A stretch of DNA of 64,000 bases from contig OZ244939.1 of NCBI GenBank assembly GCA_965222235.1, forward strand, positions 493,942-557,941, written 5' to 3'. The stretch is from Minisyncoccota bacterium. GTDB lineage: Bacteria > Patescibacteriota > Minisyncoccia > Phycocordibacterales > JABAAK01. Shown in pieces: positions 13,204 through 61,957 of this stretch. Below the pieces are notes generated by a model. It did no database searches and was not told the origin of the DNA. It was given only the letters and a program-made list of their open reading frames with translations. The number at the start of each line of letters is the position of its first letter. The stretch's first letter is position 1. The position numbers and the translations under genes were made by a program.

Positions 13204-14235
13204 TTATTCGTTAATTTTTTTCCGTATTTCCCGCTCAAGATCATGTTTGAGCTTGGTGTTTTCCGCAAGGGTCGTGCGCGCCGCGTCATAGCCGCGGCCC
13301 AGTTTCTCCTCGCCGTATGAATATGACGCACCGCCTTTCTTCTCAACCAGTCCGTATTTTTCTCCGAGCGCAAGCAGTTCACCCTCGCGGGTGATGCCCT
13401 CGTTGTACATCAGGTCAAACTCGGCGGTGCGATACGGCGCACCGACCTTATTCTTCACCACTTTGACACGCACCCGGTTGCCTTTCACTTCATCGCCCTT
13501 CTTGATCTGTGCGATGCGCCGCACATCCATTCTCAGCGAGCTGTAGAATTTCAGCGCCTTGCCGCCCGGGGTGGTTTCTGGATTGCCGAACATAACGCCG
13601 ATCTGCATGCGGATCTGGTTGATAAATACGATTGCCGTTGAGGAACGGGCGACAATCGCCGTGAGCTTTCTGAGCGCCTGGCTCATCAGCCGCGCCTGGC
13701 GCCCGACATGATGTTCTCCCATATCCCCCTCAATCTCCGCCTTCGGCGTGAGCGCGGCGACAGAGTCAATGACGATGACATCCACGGTGTTGGTGCGCAC
13801 GAGCGAATCGGTAATATCCAGCGCCTGCTCTCCGGTATCCGGCTGGGATACCAGAAGATCTTTCACTTTCACGCCGATGCGACGCGCATATTCCGGATCA
13901 AGCGCGTGCTCGGCATCCACGAAAGCACACACACCGCCCAGTTTCTGTGCCTCGGCGACAATGTGGAGTGCGAGTGTTGTCTTACCGGACGATTCAGGGC
14001 CGAATATTTCAATGATTCTTCCGCGCGGCACACCGCCGACACCGATTGCGGCATCCAGTCCGAGGGAGCCGGTGGGAACCGCATTAATTTTTTGCTTCGG
14101 CATCTCGCCCATGATCATGATGGAGTCCTCGCCGAATTTTGTTTTAATATTCGCGAGTGCGTTCCGTAACACTTCGCTGTCTTTCTTCGCTTCCTTCTTA
14201 TCTCTCGTCTTCGCTGTTTTCTTCGTTGATGTCAT
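13204..14235 (-). CDS. recA: recombinase RecA with a Lys-rich N-terminal extension
   Basis: Walker [14 protein letters not shown], the L1/L2 loop regions and canonical RecA N-terminal helix ([15 protein letters not shown]). Preceded by ~20 Lys-rich residues. Confidence 0.95.
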
Positions 14236-32601: not shown

Positions 32602-35600
32602 TTACCGCGCACAATTTCCCGGGTCAGTAACACTACTACAAGTACCACCAGATATTGACCATCTTCCGTTAGAACAACGAACTGTTGCAGATCCACCGGT
32701 TTCAGTACCACAAGAACTATAGTTAATTGTATCAGTTACAGATCTAATTGATCCATTACTACCCCTTTGAACGGATCCAGAGCACCATCTTGTAGAACAG
32801 TATTTGTCTTTGCCGCTCCCGGAACATGAGGTTACTCTCCAAGATACATTTTTCCTTTCACAATCACCCGGATATCTGCAAAACTTACTGCAAGTAGAAG
32901 TGGCATCCTTACAACCAACTCCTCCCCAGAAACCAAATCTATCTGTTCTCCATCTTACAGTGCAACTGCCACCCAAAGCTGGTTCACAACATCGTCTTTG
33001 GCCTGCATGCCCACCGCATTCATTTGTTTTACAACACGAACCAGTGGTTACAACACTTCCTCCGGGACCACAAGGATTTTTCACCACACTACACAAACTA
33101 GTGAGCCGTCTCCCCGCTGAAGCCGGACCTTGACACCTCCATTTCTCATGGGTGGAGGTGTCATGTTGGGTTGTCTGTACCGCACTCCAACCACTCTTGC
33201 ATCTGTCTCGGGTTGTACCACACCGACCAATTATACTACATGCCCCCGTCGTCTTGGTACCCGTTTTGGATCTGGATTGGCTTGTGGATTTTGAGGACGA
33301 ACAGCCCGTGCAGGAGCGTGTCCGTGTCTGGGTAAAGCTGACACCTTTACACTCTGTTGATGTCGCCGGTGTCCAGGATGTCCAGGAGCCGCAGGAGCAG
33401 GTGGAGCTGCAGCTCGTATCACTCACACTCCAGCTCCCGGTATCACACGAAAAAGTCGCCGAACCGGTATAGTAGCTTTTATCATTGGTCGCACTGAATG
33501 AGGAGCCGTGAGATTTCAGGGATACATAATCACTGCAGTTGGTGGACCAGGTCTGTCTTCCTCCGGTACATCTGCAGCCGACCGCGGAGGCAGACTTGGT
33601 GCCGGTTGTGGATCTGGATTTTGGTGTACTTGACGGACAGCCCGTGCAGGTGCGTGTCTGGGTAAGGGAGTTCCCGGAGCACGCTGTTGATCTCGCCGGT
33701 GTCCAGGAGCCGCAGGAGCAGGTGGAGCTGCAGCTCGTATCACTCACACTCCAGCTCCTGGTATCACACGAAAAAGTCGCCGAACCGGTATAGTAGCTTT
33801 TATCATTGGTCGCACTGAATGAGGAGCCGTGAGATTTCAGGGATACATAATCACTGCAGTTGGTGGACCAGGTCTGTCTTCCTCCGGTACATCTGCAGCC
33901 GACCGCGGAGGCAGACTTGGTGCCGGTTGTGGATCTGGATTTTGGTGTACTTGACGGACAGCCCGTGCAGGTGCGTGTCTGGGTAAGGGAGTTCCCGGAG
34001 CACGCTGTTGATCTCGCCGGTGTCCAGGAGCCGCAGGAGCAGGTGGAGCTGCAGCTCGTATCACTCACACTCCAGCTCCCGGTATCACACGAAAAAGTCG
34101 CCGAACCGGTATAGTAGCTTTTATCATTGGTCGCACTGAATGAGGAGCCGTGAGATTTCAGGGATACATAATCACTGCAGTTGGTGGACCAGGTCTGTCT
34201 TCCTCCGGTACATCTGCAGCCGACCGCGGAGGCAGACTTGGTGCCGGTTGTGGATCTGGATTTTGGTGTACTTGACGGACAGCCCGTGCAGGTGCGTGTC
34301 TGGGTAAGGGAGTTCCCGGAGCACGCTGTTGATCTCGCCGGTGTCCAGGAGCCGCAGGAGCAGGTGGGCGGCGCGACATATCTCTCACAGTTCTCGTCGG
34401 TATATGTCAGCACCGTGCTGCTGCAGCTGTAGGAGACGGATCCCCGGGAGCCGCCACTGGTGTCTTCAAAGGTGCCCGAGCTGCCGTGTGCGACTTTGGT
34501 ATAGTTCGGGGGGTAGCAGGTACGGCTTCCCTCTGTCCATGAGGTGGGGGTGCATGTGCAGGTTTTGGTGCCGGAGATTGTTCTGGTTTCTGTTCTGTTT
34601 GAAGCGGTGGTTGTGGTACCGTTTTCTCTGCTGCACTCAGTGCCGCCGTTCCGTGGTGATGGGTTATTACACCTGCGGGTCTGGGTGACCGTGTCCGTTG
34701 AGCAGGTCAGCGAGGTTGAGGGGGTCCAGGAGGACCAGCCGCCGTGTGTCACAACCGGCGCGACATATCTCTCACAGTTCTCGTCGGTATATGTCAGCAC
34801 CGTGCTGCTGCAGCTGTAGGAGACGGATCCCCGGGAGCCGCCACTGGTGTCTTCAAAGGTGCCCGAGCTGCCGTGTGCGACTTTGGTATAGTTCGGGGGG
34901 TAGCAGGTACGGCTTCCCTCTGTCCATGAGGTGGGGGTGCATGTGCAGGTTTTGGTGCCGGAGACCTCCTCCTGTTCTATACCACAGGCACTGCCGGAGG
35001 GACAGGTGCGGGTCTGGGTGACCGTGTCCGTTGAGCAGGTCAGCGAGGTTGAGGGGGTCCAGGAGCTGCAGGAGCTCTCAATACATCGGTTCCGTGAGGC
35101 GGAGCAGGTTGGTGAATGTCCGTCGCAGGTTCCTTCACATACCCAGTTATAGGTATAGGTACCGTCAGGAGCAGCAGCGTCATTAGCGTTGCCGGCGGCG
35201 CATTGATTCCTGCCGGAGCCACATTGACCGGCAACGGGTGTACAGTGCGTATGCGATTTTTCACACAAACTGGAAGATATTCCGCTCGGGTGATATTCGA
35301 AGAAGGAGCACAGTTCTTCGGCGGTGGTATTGCCGACAAAGACATCACTGTTGGTATTGTTAGTGATATTTCTGCATCGCCACACACCGTTATGCGTTGC
35401 TGATACCTCCTCGGCACTATTGGCTTCAACCCGCACCCCTCTGCCGGAAGAAACGAGACCAGGGTTTGCTATGGTGGTACAGCTTTCATTGCCATGATAC
35501 TGAGTATCAGCCGTTACCACATTGGCGGAGGACGTGGCAATCAGAATACATACAAGAGAGAAAAGTCCCAGACATAATGCCAATTTGGGATGTGCTACAT

Positions 35601-35613
35601 GCATATGTACCAT
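32602..35613 (-). CDS. secreted cysteine-rich tandem-repeat protein, the only full-length family member with ATG start and signal peptide (copy A)
   Basis: True ATG at 35613 and signal peptide MHVAHPKLALCLGLFSLVCILIATSSA, then a ~100-aa unique N-terminal region. Two ~115-aa repeats follow, then three perfect 107-aa repeats (CSCGSWTPARSTACSGNSLTQTRTCTGC...DTSCSST) plus a variant terminal unit and a unique Cys-rich C-terminal tail. Ser/Thr/Cys content is very high. Confidence 0.8.
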   Translation of the reverse strand: MVHMHVAHPKLALCLGLFSLVCILIATSSANVVTADTQYHGNESCTTIANPGLVSSGRGVRVEANSAEEVSATHNGVWRCRNITNNTNSDVFVGNTTAEELCSFFEYHPSGISSSLCEKSHTHCTPVAGQCGSGRNQCAAGNANDAAAPDGTYTYNWVCEGTCDGHSPTCSASRNRCIESSCSSWTPSTSLTCSTDTVTQTRTCPSGSACGIEQEEVSGTKTCTCTPTSWTEGSRTCYPPNYTKVAHGSSGTFEDTSGGSRGSVSYSCSSTVLTYTDENCERYVAPVVTHGGWSSWTPSTSLTCSTDTVTQTRRCNNPSPRNGGTECSRENGTTTTASNRTETRTISGTKTCTCTPTSWTEGSRTCYPPNYTKVAHGSSGTFEDTSGGSRGSVSYSCSSTVLTYTDENCERYVAPPTCSCGSWTPARSTACSGNSLTQTRTCTGCPSSTPKSRSTTGTKSASAVGCRCTGGRQTWSTNCSDYVSLKSHGSSFSATNDKSYYTGSATFSCDTGSWSVSDTSCSSTCSCGSWTPARSTACSGNSLTQTRTCTGCPSSTPKSRSTTGTKSASAVGCRCTGGRQTWSTNCSDYVSLKSHGSSFSATNDKSYYTGSATFSCDTRSWSVSDTSCSSTCSCGSWTPARSTACSGNSLTQTRTCTGCPSSTPKSRSTTGTKSASAVGCRCTGGRQTWSTNCSDYVSLKSHGSSFSATNDKSYYTGSATFSCDTGSWSVSDTSCSSTCSCGSWTSWTPATSTECKGVSFTQTRTRSCTGCSSSKSTSQSRSKTGTKTTGACSIIGRCGTTRDRCKSGWSAVQTTQHDTSTHEKWRCQGPASAGRRLTSLCSVVKNPCGPGGSVVTTGSCCKTNECGGHAGQRRCCEPALGGSCTVRWRTDRFGFWGGVGCKDATSTCSKFCRYPGDCERKNVSWRVTSCSGSGKDKYCSTRWCSGSVQRGSNGSIRSVTDTINYSSCGTETGGSATVRCSNGRWSISGGTCSSVTDPGNCAR
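33390..34420 (-). repeat. near-perfect 321-bp tandem repeat array (3 units plus flanking variant units) inside copy A
   Basis: The six-frame track shows identical ORF translations recurring with a 321-bp period on both strands (33516/33837/34158 and 33539/33860/34181). Confidence 0.85.
34797..35308 (-). repeat. inverted-repeat arm L (~512 bp, within 5' coding region of copy A)
   Basis: Near-identical in reverse complement to 35672-36183. Both strands yield identical ORF translations in the track (34931..35152 vs 35824..36045, and 35116..35403 vs 35669..35860). Confidence 0.85.
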
Positions 35614-35671
35614 ATTACTTTATTTTATACAGAAACATACACACTGATGTGTAAAAATAGAAATTTACCTA
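35309..35671 (-). promoter_or_regulatory. unique 363-bp segment between the inverted arms carrying copy A start codon, signal-peptide/N-terminal coding and upstream AT-rich putative promoter (candidate invertible segment)
   Basis: Contains A's ATG (35613) with upstream minus-strand sequence ...tgtataaaataaagtaatATG (TATAAA/TAAAGT -10-like elements). It is flanked on both sides by the ~512-bp inverted arms. Confidence 0.5.
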
Positions 35672-36183
35672 TTCTTCGAATATCACCCGAGCGGAATATC
35701 TTCCAGTTTGTGTGAAAAATCGCATACGCACTGTACACCCGTTGCCGGTCAATGTGGCTCCGGCAGGAATCAATGCGCCGCCGGCAACGCTAATGACGCT
35801 GCTGCTCCTGACGGTACCTATACCTATAACTGGGTATGTGAAGGAACCTGCGACGGACATTCACCAACCTGCTCCGCCTCACGGAACCGATGTATTGAGA
35901 GCTCCTGCAGCTCCTGGACCCCCTCAACCTCGCTGACCTGCTCAACGGACACGGTCACCCAGACCCGCACCTGTCCCTCCGGCAGTGCCTGTGGTATAGA
36001 ACAGGAGGAGGTCTCCGGCACCAAAACCTGCACATGCACCCCCACCTCATGGACAGAGGGAAGCCGTACCTGCTACCCCCCGAACTATACCAAAGTCGCA
36101 CACGGCAGCTCGGGCACCTTTGAAGACACCAGTGGCGGCTCCCGGGGATCCGTCTCCTACAGCTGCAGCAGCACGGTGCTTGA
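35672..36183 (+). repeat. inverted-repeat arm R (~512 bp, forms the 5' end of copy B)
   Basis: Reverse complement of 34797-35308. Homology begins at ttcttcgaatatcacccgag (FFEYHPSGISSSLCEKSHTHC in both genes) and ends after ...SYSCSSTVL, where A and B diverge. Confidence 0.85.
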
Positions 36184-37198
36184 ATACAGCAATGTTGACT
36201 GCCACACCGCTACCAAAGCCTGCCTCCCGACAAGACGGACCTGGCTCAATACCTGCAGTGGTATTAGTCCGGCACGGGCTCACAACAGCAGTGTTGAAGT
36301 GACCAATGATCAGTCAGGTTACACCGGCGAAGCTTTCTTTTCGTGTGATAACGGGAGCTGGAGTGTGAGTGATACGAGCTGCAGCTCCACCTGCTCCTGC
36401 GGCTCCTGGACACCGGCGAGATCAACAGCGTGCTCCGGGAACTCCCTTACCCAGACACGCACCTGCACGGGCTGTCCGTCAAGTACACCAAAATCCAGAT
36501 CCACAACCGGCACCAAGTCTGCCTCCGCGGTCGGCTGCAGATGTACCGGAGGAAGACAGACCTGGTCCACCAACTGCAGTGATTATGTATCCCTGAAATC
36601 TCACGGCTCCTCATTCAGTGCGACCAATGATAAAAGCTACTATACCGGTTCGGCGACTTTTTCGTGTGATACCGGGAGCTGGAGTGTGAGTGATACGAGC
36701 TGCAGCTCCACCTGCTCCTGCGGCTCCTGGACATCCTGGACACCGGCGACATCAACAGAGTGTAAAGGTGTCAGCTTTACCCAGACACGGACACGCTCCT
36801 GCACGGGCTGTTCGTCCTCAAAATCCACAAGCCAATCCAGATCCAAAACGGGTACCAAGACGACGGGGGCATGTAGTATAATTGGTCGGTGTGGTACAAC
36901 CCGAGACAGATGCAAGAGTGGTTGGAGTGCGGTACAGACAACCCAACATGACACCTCCACCCATGAGAAATGGAGGTGTCAAGGTCCGGCTTCAGCGGGG
37001 AGGCGGCTCACTAGTTTGTGTAGTGTGATAACTGGAGTCAGGCCCAGGTGTGGTTCTTGGAAGAGACCACATAATCCGTGTCCCCGTGGTGAAGAGCAAA
37101 ATAGCCGGAAAGCAGATACCTGTAAATATAGATGGGAATGTAGAGGGACCGGAATTTATCAAACGCAAGTCGTGTCATGCAGCCGAAAAGAAGGATAA
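35708..37198 (+). CDS. 5'-truncated paralog (copy B) of the Cys-rich repeat protein with its own distinct C-terminal tail
   Basis: The track 'M' at 35708 is TTG. The frame is open upstream only to a TGA at 35645, with no ATG or signal peptide. The body matches A residues ~100-260, then one 107-aa repeat, a variant unit and a unique tail (...CSVITGVRPRCGSWKRPHNPCPRGEE...). Confidence 0.6.
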   Translation: MCEKSHTHCTPVAGQCGSGRNQCAAGNANDAAAPDGTYTYNWVCEGTCDGHSPTCSASRNRCIESSCSSWTPSTSLTCSTDTVTQTRTCPSGSACGIEQEEVSGTKTCTCTPTSWTEGSRTCYPPNYTKVAHGSSGTFEDTSGGSRGSVSYSCSSTVLEYSNVDCHTATKACLPTRRTWLNTCSGISPARAHNSSVEVTNDQSGYTGEAFFSCDNGSWSVSDTSCSSTCSCGSWTPARSTACSGNSLTQTRTCTGCPSSTPKSRSTTGTKSASAVGCRCTGGRQTWSTNCSDYVSLKSHGSSFSATNDKSYYTGSATFSCDTGSWSVSDTSCSSTCSCGSWTSWTPATSTECKGVSFTQTRTRSCTGCSSSKSTSQSRSKTGTKTTGACSIIGRCGTTRDRCKSGWSAVQTTQHDTSTHEKWRCQGPASAGRRLTSLCSVITGVRPRCGSWKRPHNPCPRGEEQNSRKADTCKYRWECRGTGIYQTQVVSCSRKEG

Positions 37199-37293
37199 AT
37201 ATAGTAAGTATGCGTACGGAAAAACAAAATTATGCGGAATCATTGCCATGAAAACAAGTCCCGCATGTATTAAAAAATAACTACACATTAAAT

Positions 37294-38565
37294 ATGAACA
37301 AAATAATTCTAATAATTTTGCCGTTTGCGTTACTGATCATTACAGCGGTATGGTTCAACATCAGGATAAGTAGTGAGCGCGACGGAATTGAACAAACAAT
37401 ACAAGAACTGCCAGATCCGCATGAAGCACACTCAGTATCGTATCTGACAAACAACGGTATTGCACTGTTCGGCTCTCTACGACATACACACAGCGGAACA
37501 ACAGATAATCCTGAGGAGGAAGACGGGCATGATGATGAAAATGATGAAGACGACGATGCCATCTCAGAGATATTCCTCTTCTCGCCAGATAACATCCTGC
37601 TTGATTCATTACGGGACGAAACCAACACCGGAATGGGACGAAGTGTTATTGGGTTTGATGATACGCTTCTTATTTCATTCCCGGAAGCGAATGATCGTTC
37701 CGGTTTTATCGGAGTATACCGGATTACCGATGAAAAACTGAAGAAAGTCGGTGAAATCAAATCATCTGATGACGGTAATGAACTTGACTTCGGCGGATCA
37801 ATGGATATAGCCGGAACCCTGTTATTCGTTGGTGCTGATGACAGGTCGGTTAACGGCAAGGAGGAGGTTGGCGGCGTGTATATCATAGACTTGAAAAGTG
37901 GGAGGGAGGTATCGGCGTTCAGTCCGATTGTCAGTGAAGAACATGAATTCGGAGCGAAAGTATTTGCACATGCGGATACCAAAACATTGTTTGTTGCCTC
38001 CGAGGGTGTTATCAGTTCCGCAATCGGAGGCGGATCTGTGGATGTCTTTTCATACTCGGATGCCGGTGAATTGACACATCTGCAACACATTGCTCGTCCT
38101 GACAATTTTGCAGGTTTGTTTGGTCACTCACTGACGCACACGGATGACTACCTGCTCATAGGGTCTATTTCAGAGCTGGAGAACGAAGACCGGCGGATGT
38201 CAGGAACACGCGGCAGAGTGTATGTGTATAGGCGTAACGGAGATATGTACCGGTATGTCAGCCATACGGAGGGCACGGAACATTCTAACTTCGGCTTTGC
38301 GATGAAATATGATAATGATACAGATGAGATTCTCATTTCGTCACCGACAATGAACACGATAGGGGTCTATGAAATCACCCGGGACACACTGCAACTCAAA
38401 TACGAAATCATCCATGAAGCAACATTTTTTGGTCATTCCTTTGATATCAGTGGTGGGCGACTGGCATCCACTGCACTGGGCACCGAGATTGGTGACGAGA
38501 AGTTCGTCTTCTGCAGGAAGAATGGTGCTGGGAAATACACCAACTGTGTGGTGAACGGTAAATGA
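37294..38565 (+). CDS. membrane-anchored FG-GAP beta-propeller protein (paralog P1)
   Basis: ATG start, N-terminal TM anchor and an acidic tract EEEDGHDDENDEDDD. Repeated FG-x-x motifs (FGGSMDIAG, FGAKVFAH, FGHSLTHTDDYLLIGS, FGFAMKYD, FGHSFDISGGRLAS) are typical of FG-GAP/integrin-alpha-like propellers. About 70% identical to 44111..45388. Confidence 0.6.
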   Translation: MNKIILIILPFALLIITAVWFNIRISSERDGIEQTIQELPDPHEAHSVSYLTNNGIALFGSLRHTHSGTTDNPEEEDGHDDENDEDDDAISEIFLFSPDNILLDSLRDETNTGMGRSVIGFDDTLLISFPEANDRSGFIGVYRITDEKLKKVGEIKSSDDGNELDFGGSMDIAGTLLFVGADDRSVNGKEEVGGVYIIDLKSGREVSAFSPIVSEEHEFGAKVFAHADTKTLFVASEGVISSAIGGGSVDVFSYSDAGELTHLQHIARPDNFAGLFGHSLTHTDDYLLIGSISELENEDRRMSGTRGRVYVYRRNGDMYRYVSHTEGTEHSNFGFAMKYDNDTDEILISSPTMNTIGVYEITRDTLQLKYEIIHEATFFGHSFDISGGRLASTALGTEIGDEKFVFCRKNGAGKYTNCVVNGK

Positions 38566-38569
38566 CATA

Positions 38570-39682
38570 TCATCTCCTCACACATCCTATCTGATATCGA
38601 TACGCATTACCACGGCACCTCCAGTTATCGCTCCCCCAGATTCCGCCGGAGTGATCATGTTCATAACAGGTTTCAACAGCCCTATCTCTCCATCCATGAC
38701 CGCCGCTGTTGGAAGAATCATTATCCTTACACCCCGGACGACCGTCACAGAATACTGAGTAAGTTGCTGACCAATCCCTATATTGTGTCCAGCCGGAAGG
38801 ACAGTTGAGACTTTTCGGGGCTCGTGAATCGGCGGTACATATAGAAACATTACCGCATGTTTGAGGTGCTTGATGCCTTCTGCAACATCGATCACCCTTA
38901 TCGCAATTGTACCACTCTAAACAAGTTCCTGCACCACAGTCCTTACCGGTACAGGGGCGACACGCATATCTGGAACTAGAACGAGTGGCGTTATTACACT
39001 GACCGGAATAATGTCCTGTCGCCAATCTGCCACTCGGCGTTGGGTTGGAAAACTTACATATCTTACAACTCCCTGTATTATACAGAGATCCCCCGGCCGC
39101 CGCACACTCCGCCTCCCTACCATTGTTACCGCATAGATACTTTATATCACATGCCCCCGTCGTCTTGGTACCCGTTTTGGATCTGGATTGGCTTGTGGAT
39201 TTTGAGGCCGGACAGCCCGTGCAGGAGCGTGTCCGTGTCTGGGTAAAGCTGACACCTTTACACTTTGTTGATGTCGCCGGTGTCCAGGATGTCCAGGCGC
39301 CGCAGGAGCAGGTGGAGCTGCAGCTCGTATCACTCACACTCCAGCTCCCGGTATCACACGAAAAAGTCGCCGAACCGGTATAGTAGCTTTTATCATTGGT
39401 CGCACTGAATGAGGAGCCGTGAGATTTCAGGGATACATAATCACTGCAGTTGGTGGACCAGGTCTGTCTTCCTCCGGTACATCTGCAGCCGACCGCGGAG
39501 GCAGACTTGGTGCCGGTTGTGGATCTGGATTTTGGTGTACTTGACGGACAACCCGTGCAGGTGCGTGTCTGGGTAAGGGAGTTCCCGGAGCACGCTGTTG
39601 ATCTCGCCGGTGTCCAGGAGCCGCAGGAGCAGGTGGGCGGCGCGACATATCTCTCACAGTTCTCGTCGGTATATGTCAGCAC
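38570..39682 (-). CDS. 5'-truncated paralog (copy C) of the Cys-rich repeat protein with a third distinct C-terminal Cys-rich domain
   Basis: The track start at 39682 is GTG inside the family sequence (VLTYTDENCERYVAPPT). Nucleotide homology to A begins abruptly at ...cctgttctata| (A coordinate ~34965). Contains one 107-aa repeat, a variant unit and a ~190-aa unique Cys-rich tail. Confidence 0.55.
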   Translation of the reverse strand: MLTYTDENCERYVAPPTCSCGSWTPARSTACSGNSLTQTRTCTGCPSSTPKSRSTTGTKSASAVGCRCTGGRQTWSTNCSDYVSLKSHGSSFSATNDKSYYTGSATFSCDTGSWSVSDTSCSSTCSCGAWTSWTPATSTKCKGVSFTQTRTRSCTGCPASKSTSQSRSKTGTKTTGACDIKYLCGNNGREAECAAAGGSLYNTGSCKICKFSNPTPSGRLATGHYSGQCNNATRSSSRYACRPCTGKDCGAGTCLEWYNCDKGDRCCRRHQAPQTCGNVSICTADSRAPKSLNCPSGWTQYRDWSATYSVFCDGRPGCKDNDSSNSGGHGWRDRAVETCYEHDHSGGIWGSDNWRCRGNAYRYQIGCVRR

Positions 39683-39926
39683 CGTGCTGCTGCAGCTGTA
39701 GGAGACGGATCCCCGGGAGCCGCCACTGGTGTCTTCAAAGGTGCCCGAGCTGCCGTGTGCGACTTTGGTATAGTTCGGGGGGTAGCAGGTACGGCTTCCC
39801 TCTGTCCATGAGGTGGGGGTGCATGTGCAGGTTTTGGTGCCGGAGACCTCCTCCTGTTCTATATCTATAATGACTATTGCTGTGGATTCATCATGTCAGT
39901 TCATTCTATTTTGAATATGTAAAAGA

Positions 39927-39952
39927 AGAGAGCCCCCGCGTATGCGGGGGCT
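39927..39952 (-). terminator. rho-independent terminator of the subtilase gene
   Basis: agagcccccgcg-ta-tgcgggggctct is a perfect 12-bp GC-rich stem, followed on the minus strand by ttcttttac. It lies 20 nt past the subtilase stop. Confidence 0.6.
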
Positions 39953-39972
39953 CTGAAAGAGCGAGGAGCAGG

Positions 39973-41595
39973 TCAGAAACGGAGACGATATGCTGCATGG
40001 AAGTCGCTGGTGTCGCCGGCGCTGAACTGGCTGTGGTTGGCCATGATCTCGAGAGATTCATGCTCACCCAGGTTGTAGGTCGCGGCGATGCCGGCGCGGC
40101 GGTTCCATCCGTCGCTTCCCTTGATGTCAACATCTCCGAAGACGGTGTCCGCGGAGCCGCCGAGGAACTTGCTGAGGTCCCCCGACAGATTGACTGAGAA
40201 GTTGCCGTCGGTGTACACATCGTACTGCCCGCTGAATCCGAGTGCCCGACCCCGTGCCTTGTGGATGAGGTCGGTCGGATCAGATTGCTGCCAGGTCATC
40301 CTGACGAACAGATTCTGATGCCCGAAGTCGGCATCAAAGGACATCGCTCCGCGATACCCGAACTCACGTCCGAGACCGAAGAACTCGTTCCGGCTCCCGT
40401 ATGCCACGCGACCGAAGAGGTCGTTTGCCATGGCATATCCGACACCGGCGACATATTCGTCGTCATTGCCGGCAACAATCGGGAACAGTCCGACCGCCTT
40501 TCCGTTTTCCAGAATCGGCACACCCGGGGTGAACTGGAACAGTCCAAGAGATGTGTGGCTCAGGGTGACCTCGCGGGCATGACCGCTGTTTGCATGGGTG
40601 AATGTCCCGGAGATGCTTGCTTTCCCAGGGAATGTCATAGCCCGCATGTGCGCGGGGGTAACACTGCCGATGACACTGTCCACGCCGACCACCTGCCAGC
40701 GACCGTCACGCATGACGGTCATGCAGGTGAAGTCTGCCCGACCGAGACCTTCCAGGGCCGATTCCCTGATCGCGCAGGCTTTCGCCAGCTTGATCAGGTT
40801 GTTCCGGGAGGTGTCCGGAAACACCATCAAGACGGATCCCAGAGCAGCCGCGACCTGCGGTACGGATACCGAGGTGCCGGGAAGCACCGCGTCACCCAAC
40901 TCAAACCTGAACGGTGCATAGATGCACTGGTCACCAACACCCTCGCAGCTCACCGAATACGGGTCGCGAACAACCCGACCGTTCTCCACCGCGTATCCGG
41001 CGACGAACAGAACCCTGTCCTCCCGGATTGCGGCAAGAATGTCCGGATCGGTTATGTTCTTGAGATCAACCTCGGAATTGGGATCAATGCCGTTCTGTCC
41101 GTTGCCCGTTCCCTGGATGAGCGCAAACGGTGTTTGCTGACGATGCAGTTCTTGAAGTGCACCCCTGTCGACAGCAAATGAGCCCGAAACGATCTTGGTG
41201 GTGGACGGGATGACATCGGCGTAGACTCCTGCTGGGCCGCCGTGACCTGCGGTAAGGCTGGAATCGATGACGGTGAAAGGCTCGCCGTCGCCACAGCCGA
41301 CGATGAATGCCTTGCAGGAAATCTGTGCCATCTGGCTCGCATGACCGTTCGGGTCGTCCCGATCGGATGCAAACTCAAGGATGGTGTACATCCCCGCCAC
41401 CTCAGCAACGGTTGCCTTCAGTTCGCTCCGCGGGATGCGACCGATGCCGGGAAGTGGACCTGTACCGACGGCCGGTACTTCTGGACCCGGCGGCACTGGC
41501 GGTTTCACGGGCGGTGGATCGGTTCTGGTATTGCCACCACCACCACAACCAGCAAGGAAGAGCAGCATGAGTGCTGCGGAAAGGTATTGTTTCAC
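39973..41595 (-). CDS. subtilisin-like (S8) serine protease lipoprotein with C-terminal beta-rich domain
   Basis: Lipoprotein signal with lipobox (V/M)KQYLSAALMLLFLAGC. The start is probably GTG at 41595, preceded by a gagagga Shine-Dalgarno; the track's TTG start is at 41625. S8-like motifs: Asp region TVIDSS, His region AGHGG, oxyanion region VAGYAVENG and Ser motif GTSVSVPQVAAALGSV. A C-terminal ~170-aa domain of alternating hydrophobic residues ends in ...YRLRF. Confidence 0.55.
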   Translation of the reverse strand: MKQYLSAALMLLFLAGCGGGGNTRTDPPPVKPPVPPGPEVPAVGTGPLPGIGRIPRSELKATVAEVAGMYTILEFASDRDDPNGHASQMAQISCKAFIVGCGDGEPFTVIDSSLTAGHGGPAGVYADVIPSTTKIVSGSFAVDRGALQELHRQQTPFALIQGTGNGQNGIDPNSEVDLKNITDPDILAAIREDRVLFVAGYAVENGRVVRDPYSVSCEGVGDQCIYAPFRFELGDAVLPGTSVSVPQVAAALGSVLMVFPDTSRNNLIKLAKACAIRESALEGLGRADFTCMTVMRDGRWQVVGVDSVIGSVTPAHMRAMTFPGKASISGTFTHANSGHAREVTLSHTSLGLFQFTPGVPILENGKAVGLFPIVAGNDDEYVAGVGYAMANDLFGRVAYGSRNEFFGLGREFGYRGAMSFDADFGHQNLFVRMTWQQSDPTDLIHKARGRALGFSGQYDVYTDGNFSVNLSGDLSKFLGGSADTVFGDVDIKGSDGWNRRAGIAATYNLGEHESLEIMANHSQFSAGDTSDFHAAYRLRF

Positions 41596-41831
41596 GTCGG
41601 TTTCCTCTCGTGTGTGAATGGACAAGTATGATTTACTCTAATGCCTATTTTACCACACTATCTATTTATATACAATTTTTGTGGATTTTGCCCTGAAACC
41701 TTTTAGATACAAAGGCTATCTGTCCGTGCTGTGATGTGTCGCAGAAATCGTTTCCCAAACGGACACTGTGTCTAGAATTCTTCTCTCTTGTATGTATTCT
41801 GATTGCCGCATCCTCCACCAATGTGGCAATG

Positions 41832-44067
41832 ATGGACAGAGGGAAGCCGTACCTGCTACCCCCCGAACTATACCAAAGTCGCACACGGCAGCTCGGGCAC
41901 CTTTGAAGACACCAGTGGCGGCTCCCGGGGATCCGTCTCCTACAGCTGCAGCAGCACGGTGCTTGAATACAGCAATGTTGACTGCCACACCGCTACCAAA
42001 GCCTGCCCCCCGACAAGACGGACCTGGCTCAATACCTGCAGTGGTATTAGTCCGGCACGGGCTCACAACAGCAGTGTTGAAGTGACCAATGATCAGTCAG
42101 GTTACACCGGCGAAGCTGTCTTTTCGTGTGATAACGGGAGCTGGAGTGTGAGTGATACGAGCTGCAGCTCCACCTGCTCCTGCGGCTCCTGGACACCGGC
42201 GAGATCAACAGCGTGCTCCGGGAACTCCCTTACCCAGACACGCACCTGCACGGGCTGTCCGTCAAGTACACCAAAATCCAGATCCACAACCGGCACCAAG
42301 TCTGCCTCCGCGGTCGGCTGCAGATGTACCGGAGGAAGACAGACCTGGTCCACCAACTGCAGTGATTATGTATCCCTGAAATCTCACGGCTCCTCATTCA
42401 GTGCGACCAATGATAAAAGCTACTATACCGGTTCGGCGACTTTTTCGTGTGATACCGGGAGCTGGAGTGTGAGTGATACGAGCTGCAGCTCCACCTGCTC
42501 CTGCGGCTCCTGGACACCGGCGAGATCAACAGCGTGCTCCGGGAACTCCCTTACCCAGACACGCACCTGCACGGGCTGTCCGTCAAGTACACCAAAATCC
42601 AGATCCACAACCGGCACCAAGTCTGCCTCCGCGGTCGGCTGCAGATGTACCGGAGGAAGACAGACCTGGTCCACCAACTGCAGTGATTATGTATCCCTGA
42701 AATCTCACGGCTCCTCATTCAGTGCGACCAATGATAAAAGCTACTATACCGGTTCGGCGACTTTTTCGTGTGATACCGGGAGCTGGAGTGTGAGTGATAC
42801 GAGCTGCAGCTCCACCTGCTCCTGCGGCTCCTGGACACCGGCGAGATCAACAGCGTGCTCCGGGAACTCCCTTACCCAGACACGCACCTGCACGGGCTGT
42901 CCGTCAAGTACACCAAAATCCAGATCCACAACCGGCACCAAGTCTGCCTCCGCGGTCGGCTGCAGATGTACCGGAGGAAGACAGACCTGGTCCACCAACT
43001 GCAGTGATTATGTATCCCTGAAATCTCACGGCTCCTCATTCAGTGCGACCAATGATAAAAGCTACTATACCGGTTCGGCGACTTTTTCGTGTGATACCGG
43101 GAGCTGGAGTGTGAGTGATACGAGCTGCAGCTCCACCTGCTCCTGCGGCTCCTGGACACCGGCGAGATCAACAGCGTGCTCCGGGAACTCCCTTACCCAG
43201 ACACGCACCTGCACGGGCTGTCCGTCAAGTACACCAAAATCCAGATCCACAACCGGCACCAAGTCTGCCTCCGCGGTCGGCTGCAGATGTACCGGAGGAA
43301 GACAGACCTGGTCCACCAACTGCAGTGATTATGTATCCCTGAAATCTCACGGCTCCTCATTCAGTGCGACCAATGATAAAAGCTACTATACCGGTTCGGC
43401 GACTTTTTCGTGTGATACCGGGAGCTGGAGTGTGAGTGATACGAGCTGCAGCTCCACCTGCTCCTGCGGCTCCTGGACATCCTGGACACCGGCGACATCA
43501 ACAGAGTGTAAAGGTGTCAGCTTTACCCAGACACGGACACGCTCCTGCACGGGCTGTTCGTCCTCAAAATCCACAAGCCAATCCAGATCCAAAACGGGTA
43601 CCAAGACGACGGGGGCATGTAGTATAATTGGTCGGTGTGGTACAACCCGAGACAGATGCAAGAGTGGTTGGAGTGCGGTACAGACAACCCAACATGACAC
43701 CTCCACCCATGAGAAATGGAGGTGTCAAGGTCCGGCTTCAGCGGGGAGGCGGCTCACTAGTTTGTGTAGTGTGATAACTGGAGTCAGGCCCAGTTGTGGT
43801 CCTTCAACTACATATAACATTGCCAGACCATATCAATGCATTCGATGGGGTACTTGTACACAGGGTAAATCTGGTGAAAGTGTGAGCTGTTGCAAGCAAT
43901 ATAGAGGCGGGCTGGGTAGTAGCGCAACTTCTTTGTGCTCAAGTGGTGTTGGATCGGGTTGGAGAAAAAAACCCGGTGATACTACTTGTAAATGGGTTTG
44001 GGAATGTAGAGGAACTGGAGCTTACAGCAGTGAAGTTAGAGTTTGCGGGAGGAGAAAGAAAGATTAG
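41832..44067 (+). CDS. 5'-truncated paralog (copy D) of the Cys-rich repeat protein with four perfect 107-aa repeats and a fourth distinct C-terminal tail
   Basis: Nucleotide homology to A/B starts at 41832 immediately after an in-frame TGA. The track 'M' at 41959 is GTG; there is no ATG or signal peptide. Four identical 321-bp units (ORF periodicity 42102/42423/42744/43065) are followed by a variant unit and a unique tail (...CIRWGTCTQGKSGESVSCCKQYRGG...). Confidence 0.6.
42150..43440 (+). repeat. perfect 321-bp tandem repeat array (4 units) inside copy D
   Basis: The same translations recur every 321 bp on both strands in the track, and are identical to the units in copies A, B and C. Confidence 0.85.
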
Positions 44068-44110
44068 GATGATTCCGATTATTATTTATATTAATTAAAG
44101 TAAAAAACAT

Positions 44111-45388
44111 ATGACTAAAAAGAAAATAATTATCACCGTATTATCACTCGCATTGATTACCTTTGCAATGTTTGTCCTTATGGCAAACAACCGGACATCC
44201 GACACAGATATAATATATGGTCTGCCGAATCCACATGATGCACACTCGGTTTCGCACCTAACAGACGGTGGTGTTGCGCTACTCGGCTCTCTTCGACATT
44301 TGCATGAAGAGACATATTCAGAGGAGGATGAGTACGGGCACGAAAATGAAGAAGAGGAGGATGAAGAGGAAGATGACAATACCGTATCAGAAGTATTTCT
44401 CTTCTCGTCTGAAGGAATTTTACTTGATTCACTGAAAGATGAGACTAACACAGGAATGGGACGAAGTGTCGTCGGGTTTGACAATACAATCCTCATCTCA
44501 TTCCCGGAAGCGAATGATCGTTCCGGTTTTATCGGAATATACCGAGTTAGCAGCGGGAAACTTGAAAAAACTGGTGAGATCAGACCGTCTGAGGATGGTA
44601 ATGAACTTGACTTCGGTGGATCAATGGATATAGCAGGCGATCTGTTGTTCATCGGAGCTGATGACAGATCAGTTGGCGACAGAGAAGAGGTGGGCGGCGT
44701 GTATGTCTTAGATCTGAATAGCGGGAGGGAGTTGTCAATTTTCAGTCCGGATGCCGTTGAAGAGCATGAATTCGGGGCAAAAGTACTCGCGCATGAGGAT
44801 ACCGGGACATTGATTGTTGCCTCAGAAGGCATCGTTAGCGCGGTAGGCGGAGGCGGGTCTGTGGATATTTTCTCATATTCAGATGCCGGGACACTGACTT
44901 ATCTGCAGCATATTCCTCACCCCGACAACTTCGCCGGCTTGTTTGCCCATTCATTAGTACATACAGATGACCATTTGCTTATAGGATCTGTTTCAGACTT
45001 GGAGAATGTTGAGAATGAGCAATTGTCAGGAACGCACGGCAGGGTGTATATGTATAAACGAAACGGGGATTTGTACAAGTATGTCGGCTACACGCAGGGC
45101 ACAAAACACTCAGGATTTGGGTTTGAAATGAAATATGACAATGAAACAGACGAGGTTCTTATTTCTTCGCCGGCGATACACACAATAGGGGTGTATACAA
45201 TCGTACAAGATGCCCTGCGACACCAATACAACATCACCGCCAACGCAATATTCTTCGGTCATTCTTTTGATATAGAAGGCGATCGACTGGCATCCACTGC
45301 ACTGGGTATTGAGATTGGTGACGAAAAGTTCGTCTTCTGTGAAAAAACCATTACCGGTCGGTACGGCAATTGTACGGAGAAGAAATAG
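44111..45388 (+). CDS. membrane-anchored FG-GAP beta-propeller protein (paralog P2)
   Basis: ATG start, TM anchor, an acidic tract EEDEYGHENEEEEDEEEDD and the same FG-GAP-like repeat pattern as P1. Lies immediately downstream of copy D, as P1 lies downstream of copy B. Confidence 0.6.
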   Translation: MTKKKIIITVLSLALITFAMFVLMANNRTSDTDIIYGLPNPHDAHSVSHLTDGGVALLGSLRHLHEETYSEEDEYGHENEEEEDEEEDDNTVSEVFLFSSEGILLDSLKDETNTGMGRSVVGFDNTILISFPEANDRSGFIGIYRVSSGKLEKTGEIRPSEDGNELDFGGSMDIAGDLLFIGADDRSVGDREEVGGVYVLDLNSGRELSIFSPDAVEEHEFGAKVLAHEDTGTLIVASEGIVSAVGGGGSVDIFSYSDAGTLTYLQHIPHPDNFAGLFAHSLVHTDDHLLIGSVSDLENVENEQLSGTHGRVYMYKRNGDLYKYVGYTQGTKHSGFGFEMKYDNETDEVLISSPAIHTIGVYTIVQDALRHQYNITANAIFFGHSFDIEGDRLASTALGIEIGDEKFVFCEKTITGRYGNCTEKK

Positions 45389-53861: not shown

Positions 53862-54557
53862 TCAATGAGCCAGCGCCACGGTCAGAATCACGCCGGCTCC
53901 GGCAGCTCGGAGCGCGCGCCGGGCTTCATTCAGTGTTGCGCCGGAAGTGACAACATCGTCAATGACGATGACCGAACAACCCACAACCGGCGATGCGTGC
54001 AGTGCGCCCGCGACATTCTTTTTTCTTGCATGAGCATCCGGCATTCTGCTCTGCCGCTCCGCCGCTCTCTGCCACCGCAGCACATCCCGCGCATCCCGCA
54101 TCCCGTCCGGATACCCCGCATCCCGTACAGCATTCAGAACGGCATGCAGATGATGATATTGCTCGCGGCTCCGCCGCACGGATGATGCGGGCACCGCGCA
54201 GAGCAGATAGTCCGTATAGGTGCGTGCGCGGAGGTTAAAAAGAAACTGCCGCAGTATGTGCGCGGCAATACGGATGCTGCGTGCATCTTTTTCATATTTT
54301 ATGGCAAGTATGCAGTCCCGCACCACACCTGTTCGGTACGGCAGCAGAAAGGTATGCCCGCCGAACTGTTTCGGCAGAACGTGCGCGTACAGATCCTCAT
54401 CGCGGCACCGGCGCATGCGCGCGGTGTGCCGGCGATACGGGAGAATGCTCTGCAGCAGTGTATTGAGTGCGGCAACGATACGCATACGATATATTCCGCA
54501 GTGTAGCACCCGTGGTATGATGCGTGTACATGTCAATACTGTCGCCGATACAATCAC
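53862..54557 (-). CDS. comFC: ComF-family protein with phosphoribosyltransferase domain (ComFC-like)
   Basis: C-terminal PRTase motif VIVIDDVVTSGATLNEA. Adjacent to, and divergent from, the type IV pilus genes. Confidence 0.7.
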   Translation of the reverse strand: MIVSATVLTCTRIIPRVLHCGIYRMRIVAALNTLLQSILPYRRHTARMRRCRDEDLYAHVLPKQFGGHTFLLPYRTGVVRDCILAIKYEKDARSIRIAAHILRQFLFNLRARTYTDYLLCAVPASSVRRSREQYHHLHAVLNAVRDAGYPDGMRDARDVLRWQRAAERQSRMPDAHARKKNVAGALHASPVVGCSVIVIDDVVTSGATLNEARRALRAAGAGVILTVALAH

Positions 54558-55654
54558 TGTTCAGAAGAGGACAGCGAAGCGCTCTCGGTATTGATATCGG
54601 CTCTTCGGCGGTGAAGGTGGTGCAGGCGCGCCGGGAGAAAGGCACAGCGGTGCTTGAAACATACGGATCACTCGCTATCGGTCCGTATGTGGAGGGGGCG
54701 GAGATCGGGCAGTGCGCGAATGCCAATGACGAGGTCCTGTACACAGTGCTCACCGCGCTTCTGAAGGAGGCGAAGGTTACCGCCACATCGGTCTGCATCG
54801 CGATACCGTTCCACTCAAGCCTGATATCCCTCATTGAAGTGCCGCCGCTGTCCGATGAAAAAATCGGGCAGGTGGTGCCGTTTGAGGCGAAACGATATAT
54901 CCCGGTTCCCCTTGAAGATGTCTCCATTGACTGGTTTGTGGTGCCGCGTGCCCTGCTTGAGCGGGACGATCAGTCAATGTTCCAGGAGGACGGGGAGAAA
55001 GCCATGCCGGTGAAAGAGGAAAAAAGAAAGGTGCTCCTCATCGCCATCCATAACCACGAGCTGCTGAAACACAAGAATATTCTCAGCCGCACCAATCTCA
55101 ATGTGAAGTTTTTTGAGATAGAAATATTCAGCACGCTCCGTTCGTCGGTGTACGAGAACCGGTTGCCGTTCATTATCATTGATATCGGCGCCAGAACCAG
55201 TAAGTTCTACATCGTGGAGCACGGCATCATTCTCCGCTCCCTCTTTATCAATCAGGGAGGGGAGGCGATTACGAACGCCATAGCGAAGACGGAGAACATT
55301 CCGTTCAAGGAGGCGGAATACAAAAAAAGAGAGTCCGGTTTCGGCATGCCGGAGAGCACCACCCGCCACGCGATGGCGCTGGTGACGGACGAAATCTTCA
55401 CCGAGGCGAATAATGCGATAGTCAATTTTGAACAGAAGTACCGTCAGTCCATATCCAAGGCCATTCTCACCGGCGGCGGCGCTTCCATGACCGGTATGCT
55501 TGAGGAAGCGAAAGCGAAAACGAACATAGAGGTGGAAGTGGCGAATCCGTTCGGACGCCTCCGGCATCCCGCATTTCTCAGCGAAACGCTTCAGAAGAGC
55601 GGTTCGGAATTTACCGTGGCGGTCGGCAGTGTGCTGCGCGCGCTGGGGGAATAA
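54524..55654 (+). CDS. pilM: type IV pilus assembly protein PilM (actin-like ATPase fold)
   Basis: N-terminal LGIDIGSSAVKVVQ phosphate-1 motif and C-terminal ILTGGGASMTGMLEEA; the first gene of a pilM-N-O-like run. Confidence 0.8.
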   Translation: MYMSILSPIQSLFRRGQRSALGIDIGSSAVKVVQARREKGTAVLETYGSLAIGPYVEGAEIGQCANANDEVLYTVLTALLKEAKVTATSVCIAIPFHSSLISLIEVPPLSDEKIGQVVPFEAKRYIPVPLEDVSIDWFVVPRALLERDDQSMFQEDGEKAMPVKEEKRKVLLIAIHNHELLKHKNILSRTNLNVKFFEIEIFSTLRSSVYENRLPFIIIDIGARTSKFYIVEHGIILRSLFINQGGEAITNAIAKTENIPFKEAEYKKRESGFGMPESTTRHAMALVTDEIFTEANNAIVNFEQKYRQSISKAILTGGGASMTGMLEEAKAKTNIEVEVANPFGRLRHPAFLSETLQKSGSEFTVAVGSVLRALGE

Positions 55655-55775
55655 TAGTTAACCACACATCACCGTTTACACATTTTTTACTGGTATACTG
55701 ACGGTGTATTGCACTATGTTACCGGACTTTTCAAAAAATTTTGCCAAGCAGACGATATCTCCCGGCGACGGAGAC

Positions 55776-56896: not shown

Positions 56897-56903
56897 TACG
56901 CAT

Positions 56904-57263: not shown

Positions 57264-57266
57264 TAT

Positions 57267-59021: not shown

Positions 59022-59076
59022 TAACCATGTTGAAAGTGCCGCATGCGCCGCAAAGCGCATAGTATACTGACATTGC

Positions 59077-60159: not shown

Positions 60160-60164
60160 TACAT

Positions 60165-61361: not shown

Positions 61362-61415
61362 CTTTCCCCCGGATACGGTTGTCCCCGGATGAACGGGTAT
61401 ATACTGCTGGTATAT

Positions 61416-61937: not shown

Positions 61938-61957
61938 AGGATATATACTGAAATCAT

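Follow-up and report, generated by a model that had tools for sequence, protein, structure and literature searches.

Sequence analysis of the 64-kb window, the whole stretch of DNA analysed here, which belongs to a tiny uncultured bacterium of the Patescibacteria (candidate phyla radiation), revealed a locus at 32602-45388 that we interpret, with a probability of about 0.5, as one expression site accompanied by silent cassettes for a modular surface protein, presumably rearranged by RecA-type homologous recombination. At one end of this locus, a short single-copy segment with the putative promoter and the 5' coding part of copy A is enclosed by two perfect inverted repeats, the right one of which belongs to a headless copy B on the opposite strand. 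Two further headless copies, C and D, lie at higher coordinates. The features of the locus are listed below.

32602-35613, minus strand: copy A, the sole complete gene, 1003 aa (open reading frame and translation)
34796-35304, minus strand: left arm, perfect 509-bp repeat, coding for residues 104-273 of A
35305-35671, no strand assigned: single-copy segment between the arms, the proposed invertible element, 367 bp
35614-35671, minus strand: upstream region of A, 58 bp, 77.6% AT, without a Shine-Dalgarno sequence
35672-36180, plus strand: right arm, perfect 509-bp repeat, the 5' end of silent copy B
35648-37198, plus strand: copy B, 5'-truncated silent cassette, 516-codon open frame without ATG or signal peptide
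37294-38565, plus strand: FG-GAP-repeat gene (Pfam FG-GAP_2), 423 aa, membrane or secreted, directly downstream of B
38570-39863, minus strand: copy C, 5'-truncated silent cassette with a unique Cys-rich tail of ~190 aa
39929-39954, minus strand: strong terminator-like hairpin of 11 pairs (9 GC) with a trailing T run, separating C from the 550-aa gene
39973-41625, minus strand: lipoprotein gene of 550 aa (531 aa being probable) that includes a degenerate subtilase-like region and occupies unique DNA separating C from D
41753-41829, plus strand: degenerate signal-peptide remnant at the 5' end of D, out of frame with the D body
41832-44067, plus strand: copy D, silent cassette with 4.2 repeats of 321 bp and a unique 97-aa tail
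44111-45388, plus strand: FG-GAP paralogue, 425 aa, downstream of D

Of the four copies, A alone has an ATG, signal peptide and N-terminal domain, and it is taken to be the expression site. The annotated protein P0001 is 100% identical to A and starts at its M4. From the N-terminus, A consists of the signal peptide, the N-terminal domain and a Cys-rich module of the CxxxRNxC type, followed by TSP1-like and sushi-like modules, 3.1 tandem repeats of 321 bp and a unique Cys-rich tail of 160 aa. Residues 279-334 match the thrombospondin-1 structures 1lsl and 3r6b in the PDB (E 2e-9), and the TSP1 repeat motif WSxW ... CSxTCG ... R.R.C is present together with CNNPxPxxGGxxC. Searches of Pfam and NCBIfam returned no family above threshold for A-D, indicating that most of the modules are divergent. 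The N-terminal domain is conserved in the proteins P0019 and P0043, P0019 being a single-chain fusion of this domain with FG-GAP and TSP1-like repeats; a 42% identical homologue of the 550-aa protein adjoins the P0019 gene in L083. AlphaFold prediction of the N-terminal 177 aa from a 3-sequence alignment gave a pLDDT of 51.6, too low for a fold search. Given its modules, the product of the A family is read as a probably secreted, Cys-rich modular surface protein with variable tails.

Comparison of the two strands showed that the perfect inverted repeat comprises 509 bp per arm, 34796-35304 against 35672-36180, lying within an imperfect extension of 97% identity (34775-35317 and 35659-36201). 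A perfect repeat of this length cannot have arisen by chance. The two arms share one in-frame peptide, FFEYHPSGISSSLCEKSHTHC...SYSCSSTVL, beyond which A continues with TYTDENC and B with EYSNVDC. An earlier note on this DNA had described an inverted repeat between A and B with arms of ~512 bp that share an in-frame peptide, and the repeat and the peptide are both confirmed. Its right arm starts exactly at 35672 and its lengths are nearly right, whereas its left arm is ~4 bp off. Compared literally, the ranges 34797-35308 and 35672-36183 are shifted by 4 nt against each other and mismatch at 384 of 512 positions; with one boundary exact and the lengths nearly right, this amounts to a small coordinate slip and not to a wrong observation. 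The distance between the perfect arms is thus 367 bp (35305-35671) instead of the 363 bp (35309-35671) given before. Even longer perfect inverted blocks occur in the same locus, 649 bp between A and B and 608 bp between A and D. A foldback chimera was considered as the source of the palindrome and ruled out, because the palindrome is bounded and its spacer is unique and coding.

The 367-bp segment contains the putative promoter region, ATG, signal peptide and N-terminal domain of A (aa 1-103), together with the ~58 bp of AT-rich upstream sequence previously ascribed to the spacer. Within the window it is single-copy, except for a 74-nt, 84% identical remnant at the 5' end of D. In the 58 bp between the ATG of A (35613) and the right arm the AT content reaches 77.6%, compared with 46.4% for the whole window. 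A -10-like hexamer, TAAAAT, is located at 35622-35627, 8 nt ahead of the ATG. Such a hexamer (at least 5 of 6 positions), ending 6-11 nt before the ATG, precedes 8 of the 23 window genes against a background rate of 3.9% (enrichment p = 1.5e-6), and Shine-Dalgarno-like 4-mers precede only two of the 23. The placement of TAAAAT ahead of A therefore appears to match the leaderless-type starts usual in this genome. A consensus promoter scan did not flag the spacer, and the -35 element is weak; the signal is best termed promoter-like, an assignment resting on the -10 pattern within the host genome.

Copies B, C and D all lack a start codon and a signal peptide, and all retain long open frames. The frame of B begins only past a TGA at 35645-35647, without a usable start, and B carries 1.x repeat units and a unique 56-aa tail. 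Copy C lies directly after the terminator of the 550-aa gene, in direct orientation relative to A. In D, a TGA stands directly before WTEGSR of the body, and the 84% identical remnant carries deletions. This decayed and frameshifted signal-peptide remnant indicates that family members do pseudogenise at the locus.

The history of the cassettes can be read from their neighbours. The FG-GAP partner genes of B and D share 75.8% nucleotide identity (dS 1.18, dN/dS 0.21), which makes the B/D cassette duplication an old one. The shared repeat parts of the cassettes are, nevertheless, 99.6-100% identical. Such identity beside 76% identical DNA needs repeated recombination, and this homogenisation argues for continuing recombination between the copies, inverted ones included. 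The unique tails have stayed open as well. That of C spans 567 nt with 0 stops, compared with 3 and 23 stops in the other two frames, and is open by chance in fewer than 1 in 2000 shuffles; the corresponding probabilities are 0.0005 for the tail of D and 0.03 for that of B. Moreover, the cysteine pattern of the family is kept in the unique tails of all three silent copies. The open tails argue for selection on the silent copies.

Simulated inversion of the 367-bp segment yielded an in-frame A-B fusion of 611 aa that ends at B's own stop, as expected from the earlier proposal that promoter, signal peptide and N-terminus would be fused in frame to B. The predicted difference between the two copies also holds, in repeats (1.x units in B versus 3.1 in A) and in tail (56 versus 160 aa). 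Counting as usable those inverted repeats between A and B or D that are perfect over at least 100 bp, we found that 16 of 16 give in-frame products of 611-1261 aa, each ending at the natural stop of B or D. The 509-bp pair is accordingly one among at least 16 usable pairs. Inversions of 6.9-9.3 kb reach D, in agreement with the larger inversion of ~7 kb suggested before. Copy C had been thought to need deletion or gene conversion; in simulation, two nested inversions suffice and give a 641-aa product. Taken together, every structural element of the DNA-inversion switch put forward in the earlier note that can be checked in silico holds, whereas its route to C, its view of a single repeat pair and its analogy to the Campylobacter fetus sap system need correcting.

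Three genes of the window are candidates for the recombination machinery, with recA at the position reported earlier.

13204-14235, minus strand: recA
6652-7227, minus strand: RecO
11943-12413, plus strand: SSB

No recombinase domain turned up when the ORFs of the 64-kb window (minimum length 90-200 aa) were searched, and its six frames contain no serine-recombinase motif, bearing out the earlier statement that no site-specific recombinase is encoded in this window.

These features enable us to outline a putative model for the switch. Homologous recombination between the 509-bp arms would flip the 367-bp segment, by which the same promoter and 5' exon would be joined in frame to cassette B. 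Transcription may afterwards continue into the 423-aa FG-GAP gene downstream of B, a possible co-switched partner. Recombination at the other A/B or A/D inverted repeats would lead to isoforms differing in repeat number and C-terminal tail, and C would become reachable once the bodies of B and C were swapped. Non-crossover outcomes of the same recombination would keep the repeats nearly identical. We infer a RecA-dependent recombination, inversion at a useful rate and products that act as functional surface variants. In its full form, the model assumes RecA-run combinatorial inversion without a dedicated recombinase, in which an ultra-small cell shuttles a promoter-leader exon among three cassettes through single and nested inversions to produce more than 12 isoforms, differing in size and tail, of a eukaryote-like thrombospondin-repeat adhesin, maybe with on/off control of a partner FG-GAP gene; in this form it is tentative, with odds somewhat short of even.

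Alternatively, B, C and D might be static relics, that is, decaying pseudogene fragments of past inverted and direct duplications, with only A being made and the arms owing their identity to a very recent duplication or to occasional gene conversion without adaptive switching. The decayed 5' end of D, with its deleted, out-of-frame and 84% identical remnant, agrees with this, as do the lack of a recombinase nearby within the window and the fact that the protein collection does not contain the ORFs of B, C and D, consistent with an annotation as pseudogenes. We consider it unlikely, albeit to be taken seriously, given that all three tails are open and keep their cysteine pattern in spite of the old B/D duplication (dS 1.18), that every inverted-repeat register gives an in-frame product, and that 99.6-100% identity beside 76% identical DNA requires repeated recombination. 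The same switch could also be the work of a site-specific recombinase, of the tyrosine or serine type, whose gene lies elsewhere in the genome and which acts on a short core inside the arms. The length of the arms would then be due solely to the identical protein modules encoded on either side. Such an enzyme is used in most of the characterised programmed inversions, some loci have none nearby (PMC9881135), and the window covers 64 kb of a ~641-kb contig. This version is distinctly improbable in our view: neither a recombinase domain nor a serine-recombinase motif occurs in the window, the perfect arms of 509-649 bp are ample substrates for RecA, and homogenisation spans whole repeats instead of a short core. 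A pilE/pilS-like mechanism, in which A varies chiefly through one-way gene conversion by the silent cassettes and not through reciprocal inversion, has in turn only a slim chance. The homogenised repeats are direct evidence of conversion tracts, and C is in direct orientation to A; the unique tails, however, form the 3' ends and are followed by no homology common to the copies, so that conversion of a tail into A would have no downstream anchor, whereas inversion needs one shared block. Furthermore, a head-to-head layout with minimal spacer is what inversion systems show (PMC9881135).

That a palindromic misjoin or collapsed repeat in the assembly created the head-to-head layout is scarcely credible, although inverted repeats are classic misassembly sites and the genome is a single metagenome-derived contig for which no second assembly was found for comparison. 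The arms flank a unique 367-bp segment with a proper signal peptide and a conserved domain, and both ends of this segment abut arm sequence, so an inverted copy beside the promoter must exist in the reads. The outer flanks run 28 kb on each side into different, sensible genes. Besides, the contig crosses near-perfect repeats of >1.2 kb and 321-bp tandem arrays, implying that long reads probably span them. An independent Logan assembly built with k = 31 is 100% identical and ends exactly 30 nt into the repeats of C and D, its contig L002 corresponding to 39834-41861 of the window and reproducing exactly the unique-to-repeat junctions at C and D. The spacer fragment expected from the Logan assembly was not found in the protein collection, nor were the ORFs of B, C and D, and there is consequently no independent contig for the spacer. 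Orientation cannot be taken from short k-mer assemblies and this approach was rejected: inversion between perfect repeats longer than k makes no new k-mers, leaving the k = 31 graph identical for both orientations.

Exact look-ups of A and P0001 on contigs and a GTDB scan with a 48-mer from the spacer gave no match, and JGI metagenome scans with alignments of the N-terminal domain and of the 550-aa protein gave no relatives; across the contig, protein, GTDB and JGI searches, no second assembly or strain of the source organism was found. Around L084 and L085, which are homologues of the 550-aa gene, neither family members nor comparable inverted repeats occur. Integrases near these two homologues look like parts of unrelated mobile elements. 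An Rfam search of the window returned no match.

The arrangement is reminiscent of the C. fetus sap system, in which nested, recA-dependent inversion moves a single sapA promoter between oppositely oriented sap homologues. All of these homologues are full ORFs with a start of their own. What moves is the promoter alone, borne on a 6.2-kb invertible element together with secretion genes; a conserved 5' block of ~0.5-0.6 kb serves as the recombination substrate without a dedicated invertase, and the product is an S-layer protein. Both loci have one promoter, here a putative one, on a segment flanked by oppositely oriented members of a surface family with variable C-terminal parts, a shared 5' block of ~0.5-0.6 kb (here the perfect 509-bp arms), no dedicated invertase (here within the 64-kb window) and further copies accessible via larger or nested inversions. 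The sapA geometry invoked in the earlier note thus stands in that opposed members share a long 5' block, and fails in that the silent copies here are not complete ORFs, lacking start codon and signal peptide. As a consequence, the moving piece would be a promoter together with a 5' coding exon, 367 bp that include the first 103 codons. The homology block here is, moreover, internal to the coding sequence, and the protein is TSP1-like and Cys-rich instead of an S-layer protein. References on the sap inversion are given in PMC1950947.

In this respect the locus resembles vsa of Mycoplasma pulmonis, where one expression site provides the promoter, start and 5' coding region, and inversion connects it with silent, 5'-truncated genes whose variable parts hold tandem repeats (PMC2268961; PMC4534519). 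A promoter and 5' exon joined to headless copies is common to both, for the present locus as a simulated geometry. The vsa system, however, relies on the tyrosine recombinase HvsR acting at short specific sites, and makes lipoproteins. The present locus has arms of 132-649 bp in perfect homology, no recombinase in the window and a protein without a lipobox. Milman, Yelin and Kishony (2023) reported four sequence predictors of gene-altering programmed inversions, namely long inverted repeats, short gene distance, repeat-approaching orientation and gene-pseudogene asymmetry, the last meaning that the stretch between transcription start site and first repeat is missing from the partner (PMC9881135). 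All four attributes are found at this locus. The cases which that survey confirmed by long reads came from Actinobacteria, Bacteroidetes, Firmicutes and Proteobacteria, and none from Patescibacteria (PMC9881135). Gene-altering programmed inversions are exemplified by the hsdS shufflons and the S. pneumoniae ivr locus (PMC4948785). Like these, the locus has a full-length gene beside inverted, 5'-truncated partial copies; unlike it, with none in the 64-kb window, they are usually accompanied by a recombinase gene. The A-D family is not among the inversion targets listed in PMC9881135. One expressed copy with promoterless partial cassettes and homologous recombination is also the pattern of Neisseria pilE/pilS, Borrelia vlsE and Anaplasma msp2 (PMC4534519). 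Those systems copy one-way into the expression site, whereas the geometry here, with homology on only one side of the variable tails, favours reciprocal inversion. Surface-changing inversion is a familiar bacterial device, and the kind of locus is already known.

With their tiny genomes, Patescibacteria are believed to grow attached to other cells, and the choice of hosts open to them should therefore depend on their surface proteins. Diversity-generating retroelements are the source of variation usually considered in this group, and our literature searches revealed no report of invertible switches in Patescibacteria. If the model is true, this locus, a concrete target easily testable by long reads, would be the first inversion-based programmed surface-variation switch described in this group. 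A minimal genome would then keep ~13 kb, ~2% of the 641-kb contig, for varying one adhesin-like protein, and would achieve this variation with general recombination functions alone. Such a switch would bear on host choice or evasion by Patescibacteria episymbionts.

The locus at 32602-45388 holds four copies, A to D, of a Cys-rich secreted-protein family, which are arranged with their neighboring genes as follows.

32602-35613, minus strand: copy A, 1003 aa, the sole complete gene; it starts with an ATG, and its hydrophobic N-terminus resembles a signal peptide (MVHMHVAHPKLALCLGLFSLVCILIATSSA)
to 37198, plus strand: copy B, whose frame opens only past a TGA at 35645-47, without an ATG or signal peptide
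39863 down to 38570, minus strand: copy C, without a start
39973-41625, minus strand: 550-aa lipoprotein gene, with an LAGC lipobox and a GTSVSVPQVAAALG motif
41832-44067, plus strand: copy D, preceded by a degenerate signal-peptide remnant
after B and after D, on the same strand as each: FG-GAP-repeat paralogues of 423 and 425 aa, respectively

All four copies have modules in common, among them 321-bp tandem repeats, of which A has 3.1 and D has 4.2; the Cys-rich C-terminal tail differs from copy to copy. In the AlphaFold model of A, residues 9-29 form a helix, though of low confidence. Copy C starts directly past a strong terminator-like hairpin (39954-39929) that closes the 550-aa gene. The signal-peptide remnant before D lies in another frame than the D body, and a TGA directly precedes the first shared codon. 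This remnant resembles an old expression site that small deletions have put out of use. The decay at the 5' end of D shows that members of this family do also lose their function. Within the FG-GAP genes, there are antisense ORFs of 274 aa (37281-38105, minus) and 245 aa (44095-44832, minus), which are conserved between the paralogues and are probably not genes but a result of codon composition.

Copies A and B share a perfect 509-bp inverted repeat (left arm 34796-35304, right arm 35672-36180), which reached 543 nt at 97% identity with its imperfect extensions in a repeat search of the window. The arms enclose a 367-bp spacer (35305-35671) that carries the ATG, signal peptide and N-terminal domain of A, and that is single-copy in the window save for an 84% identical, 74-nt remnant at 41753-41826. 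The earlier note had described this feature rightly, with left-arm coordinates about 4 nt off, and its ranges do not literally pair. It had also proposed that inversion would fuse the 5' segment in frame to B, which was borne out by simulation: flipping 35305-35671 joined the 5' end of A (start codon, signal peptide, N-terminal domain) in frame to B, yielding a 611-aa product that shares its first 273 residues with A and ends at B's own stop. Furthermore, the module GTKTCTCTPTSW...SYSCSSTVL is near-perfectly duplicated inside A (34409-34594 and 34796-34981). As a result, a second register is open to B's arm, which can pair with A over 169 bp of perfect inverted repeat, for a product of 740 aa. 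An enumeration between A and 35672-44067 yielded 16 perfect inverted repeats with a length of 100 bp or more. Each of them led to an in-frame product (611-1261 aa) whose stop was the native one of B or D; the inversions measure 1.4-2.6 kb for A/B and 6.9-9.3 kb for A/D. Copy C, for which the earlier note had suggested deletion or gene conversion, proved accessible by inversions alone. In the simulation, a perfect 186-bp inverted repeat (35995-36180 / 39678-39863) first serves to exchange the bodies of B and C, which inverts 36181-39677; the spacer flip that follows gives an in-frame 641-aa product with the C tail.

We asked whether the repeats could be an assembly artefact. Both ends of the spacer abut arm sequence, so the reads must contain an inverted arm beside the putative promoter; on either side, the flanks run on into normal genes. 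Logan, an independent k-mer assembly (k = 31) that is blind to the linkage of outer flank and arm, that is, to the switch state, contains a contig matching window positions 39834-41861 at 100%. Its two ends fall precisely 30 nt into the repeats of C and D, as expected if the repeat boundaries there are real. The loci of relatives with homologues of the 550-aa neighbor gene showed no comparable repeats.

The spacer was not flagged in a consensus promoter scan. Among 23 well-defined genes of the window, 8 have a -10 hexamer (at least 5 of 6 positions) ending 6-11 nt before the ATG, against 3.9% of all ATG triplets (p = 1.5e-6), and only 2 have a Shine-Dalgarno-like 4-mer. These frequencies indicate leaderless or near-leaderless mRNAs, and starts of this appearance are found window-wide, for example at 425, 23589, 49468, 52797 and 59077. 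Copy A follows the same pattern, with TAAAAT (35622-35627) 8 nt upstream of its ATG in a 58-bp stretch of 78% AT. Given the identical arms, the 567 bp upstream of the 5' exon are the same whichever way the spacer lies, and the model thus tolerates any promoter position not beyond 36180. A separate promoter-like site, TTTACC-16-TACAAT (41649-41676), lies upstream of D within 41626-41832.

As the earlier note had it, the window encodes no site-specific recombinase. Domain scans of its ORFs were negative for integrases, resolvases, invertases and Piv-type domains, and the serine-recombinase motif is absent from all six frames. The genes for RecA, RecO and SSB are all within the window, which makes homologous recombination the most economical mechanism, judged on the window alone. 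Inversion would then proceed by homologous recombination in a RecA-dependent manner. The sole mobile-element gene seen in the window, an IS30-family transposase (10300-11382, minus; NCBIfam E 8e-65), is 24 kb away.

The FG-GAP genes that accompany B and D share 75.8% identity (dS 1.18, dN/dS 0.21); the cassette duplication is thus old, and both partners are under purifying selection. Where B and D match each other and A, in contrast, identity is 99.6%-100%, which requires that the copies, those in inverted orientation among them, have recombined repeatedly. If the same intermediates are resolved by crossover, inversions result. The silent tails have stayed open in their coding frames, which are free of stops in all three. 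In the C tail (567 nt), the other frames hold 3 and 23 stops, and none of 2000 shuffles was open; the corresponding shuffle P values are 0.0005 for the D tail (291 nt) and 0.03 for the B tail (168 nt). With nucleotide identity down to about 76%, the tails of B and D still carry the family motif TCKxxWECRGTGxY...C. Open, motif-keeping tails are hard to reconcile with dead pseudogenes of such age. Both recombination activity and a coding value of the silent cassettes are supported by the sequence.

Copies A-D match no Pfam or NCBIfam family. Residues 279-334 of A match human thrombospondin-1 structures at their thrombospondin type 1 repeats (E 2e-9), and an exhaustive HMMER search with residues 1-272 revealed 64 relatives, most of which (e.g., P0011 and P0013) contain CxxxRNxCxAGxxND...YxWxCxG and WxPxxxxxCSGxxxTQTRTC modules. 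The product of A is best described as a putative secreted or surface, disulfide-rich, modular adhesin-like protein. One related protein, P0019 (metagenome contig L083:10001-12511), has a signal peptide and N-terminal domain as in A (47% identical over 114 residues), followed by FG-GAP repeats and then TSP1-like repeats, all in one protein. This fusion provides a Rosetta-stone link between the function of the A family and that of the FG-GAP genes after B and D. Directly upstream of the P0019 gene, L083:8218-9894 encodes a 42% identical homologue of the 550-aa lipoprotein, some homologues of which match Peptidase_S8; the neighborhood is thus ancestral and its linkage to the A family conserved. 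DsbA-like thioredoxin and DsbD-type genes occur in the window (425-1884, plus), and a thioredoxin/DsbD_2 pair lies near the P0019 gene (L083:3439-4640), which would fit the oxidation need of very Cys-rich secreted proteins.

RecA and leucyl-tRNA synthetase of the window are closest to Patescibacteria, the latter being 62%-66% identical to Candidatus Kaiserbacteria and up to 73% in ENA relatives. Identical proteins came only from one NCBI/ENA contig (641,294 nt) and the Logan run ERR13605531. In another class I tRNA synthetase, probably isoleucyl (3103-6648, plus), a histidine-phosphatase domain (His_Phos_1) occupies residues 519-703 as an insertion. Positions 54524-64000 hold a type IV pilus cluster of the sort typical of Patescibacteria, which encodes PilM, two T2SSE ATPases, a PilC-like T2SSF protein and several pilin-like N_methyl proteins, of which one contains an fn3 domain.

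The sap locus of Campylobacter fetus, to which the earlier note likened this geometry, relies on one promoter, on extensive conserved 5' homology and on nested inversions, and has no dedicated invertase. The present locus would work alike, with a putative single promoter and with nested inversions predicted from the sequence; however, its silent genes are incomplete, and it thus departs from sap in one defining feature. In gene architecture, the locus resembles Mycoplasma pulmonis vsa, in which silent genes without a 5' end receive a promoter, a ribosome-binding site and the first 714 nt (PMC2268961), but it lacks the short sites, and the window lacks a vsa-type recombinase. Milman et al. described four sequence attributes that predict gene-altering programmed inversions (PMC9881135), all of which are present here. 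We consider the locus a well-formed candidate for recombinational variation, and put at about 0.5 the probability that it comprises an expression site and silent cassettes for surface-protein variation by homologous-recombination inversion. Within this proposed switch, we infer the inversion, its rate, its RecA dependence and the expression of the fusions. Confirmed cases in the survey of Milman et al. came from four phyla, Patescibacteria not among them (PMC9881135), and our literature search found no report of an inversion switch in Patescibacteria. The locus would extend a known type of inversion locus to a phylum and a protein family that are both new to it.
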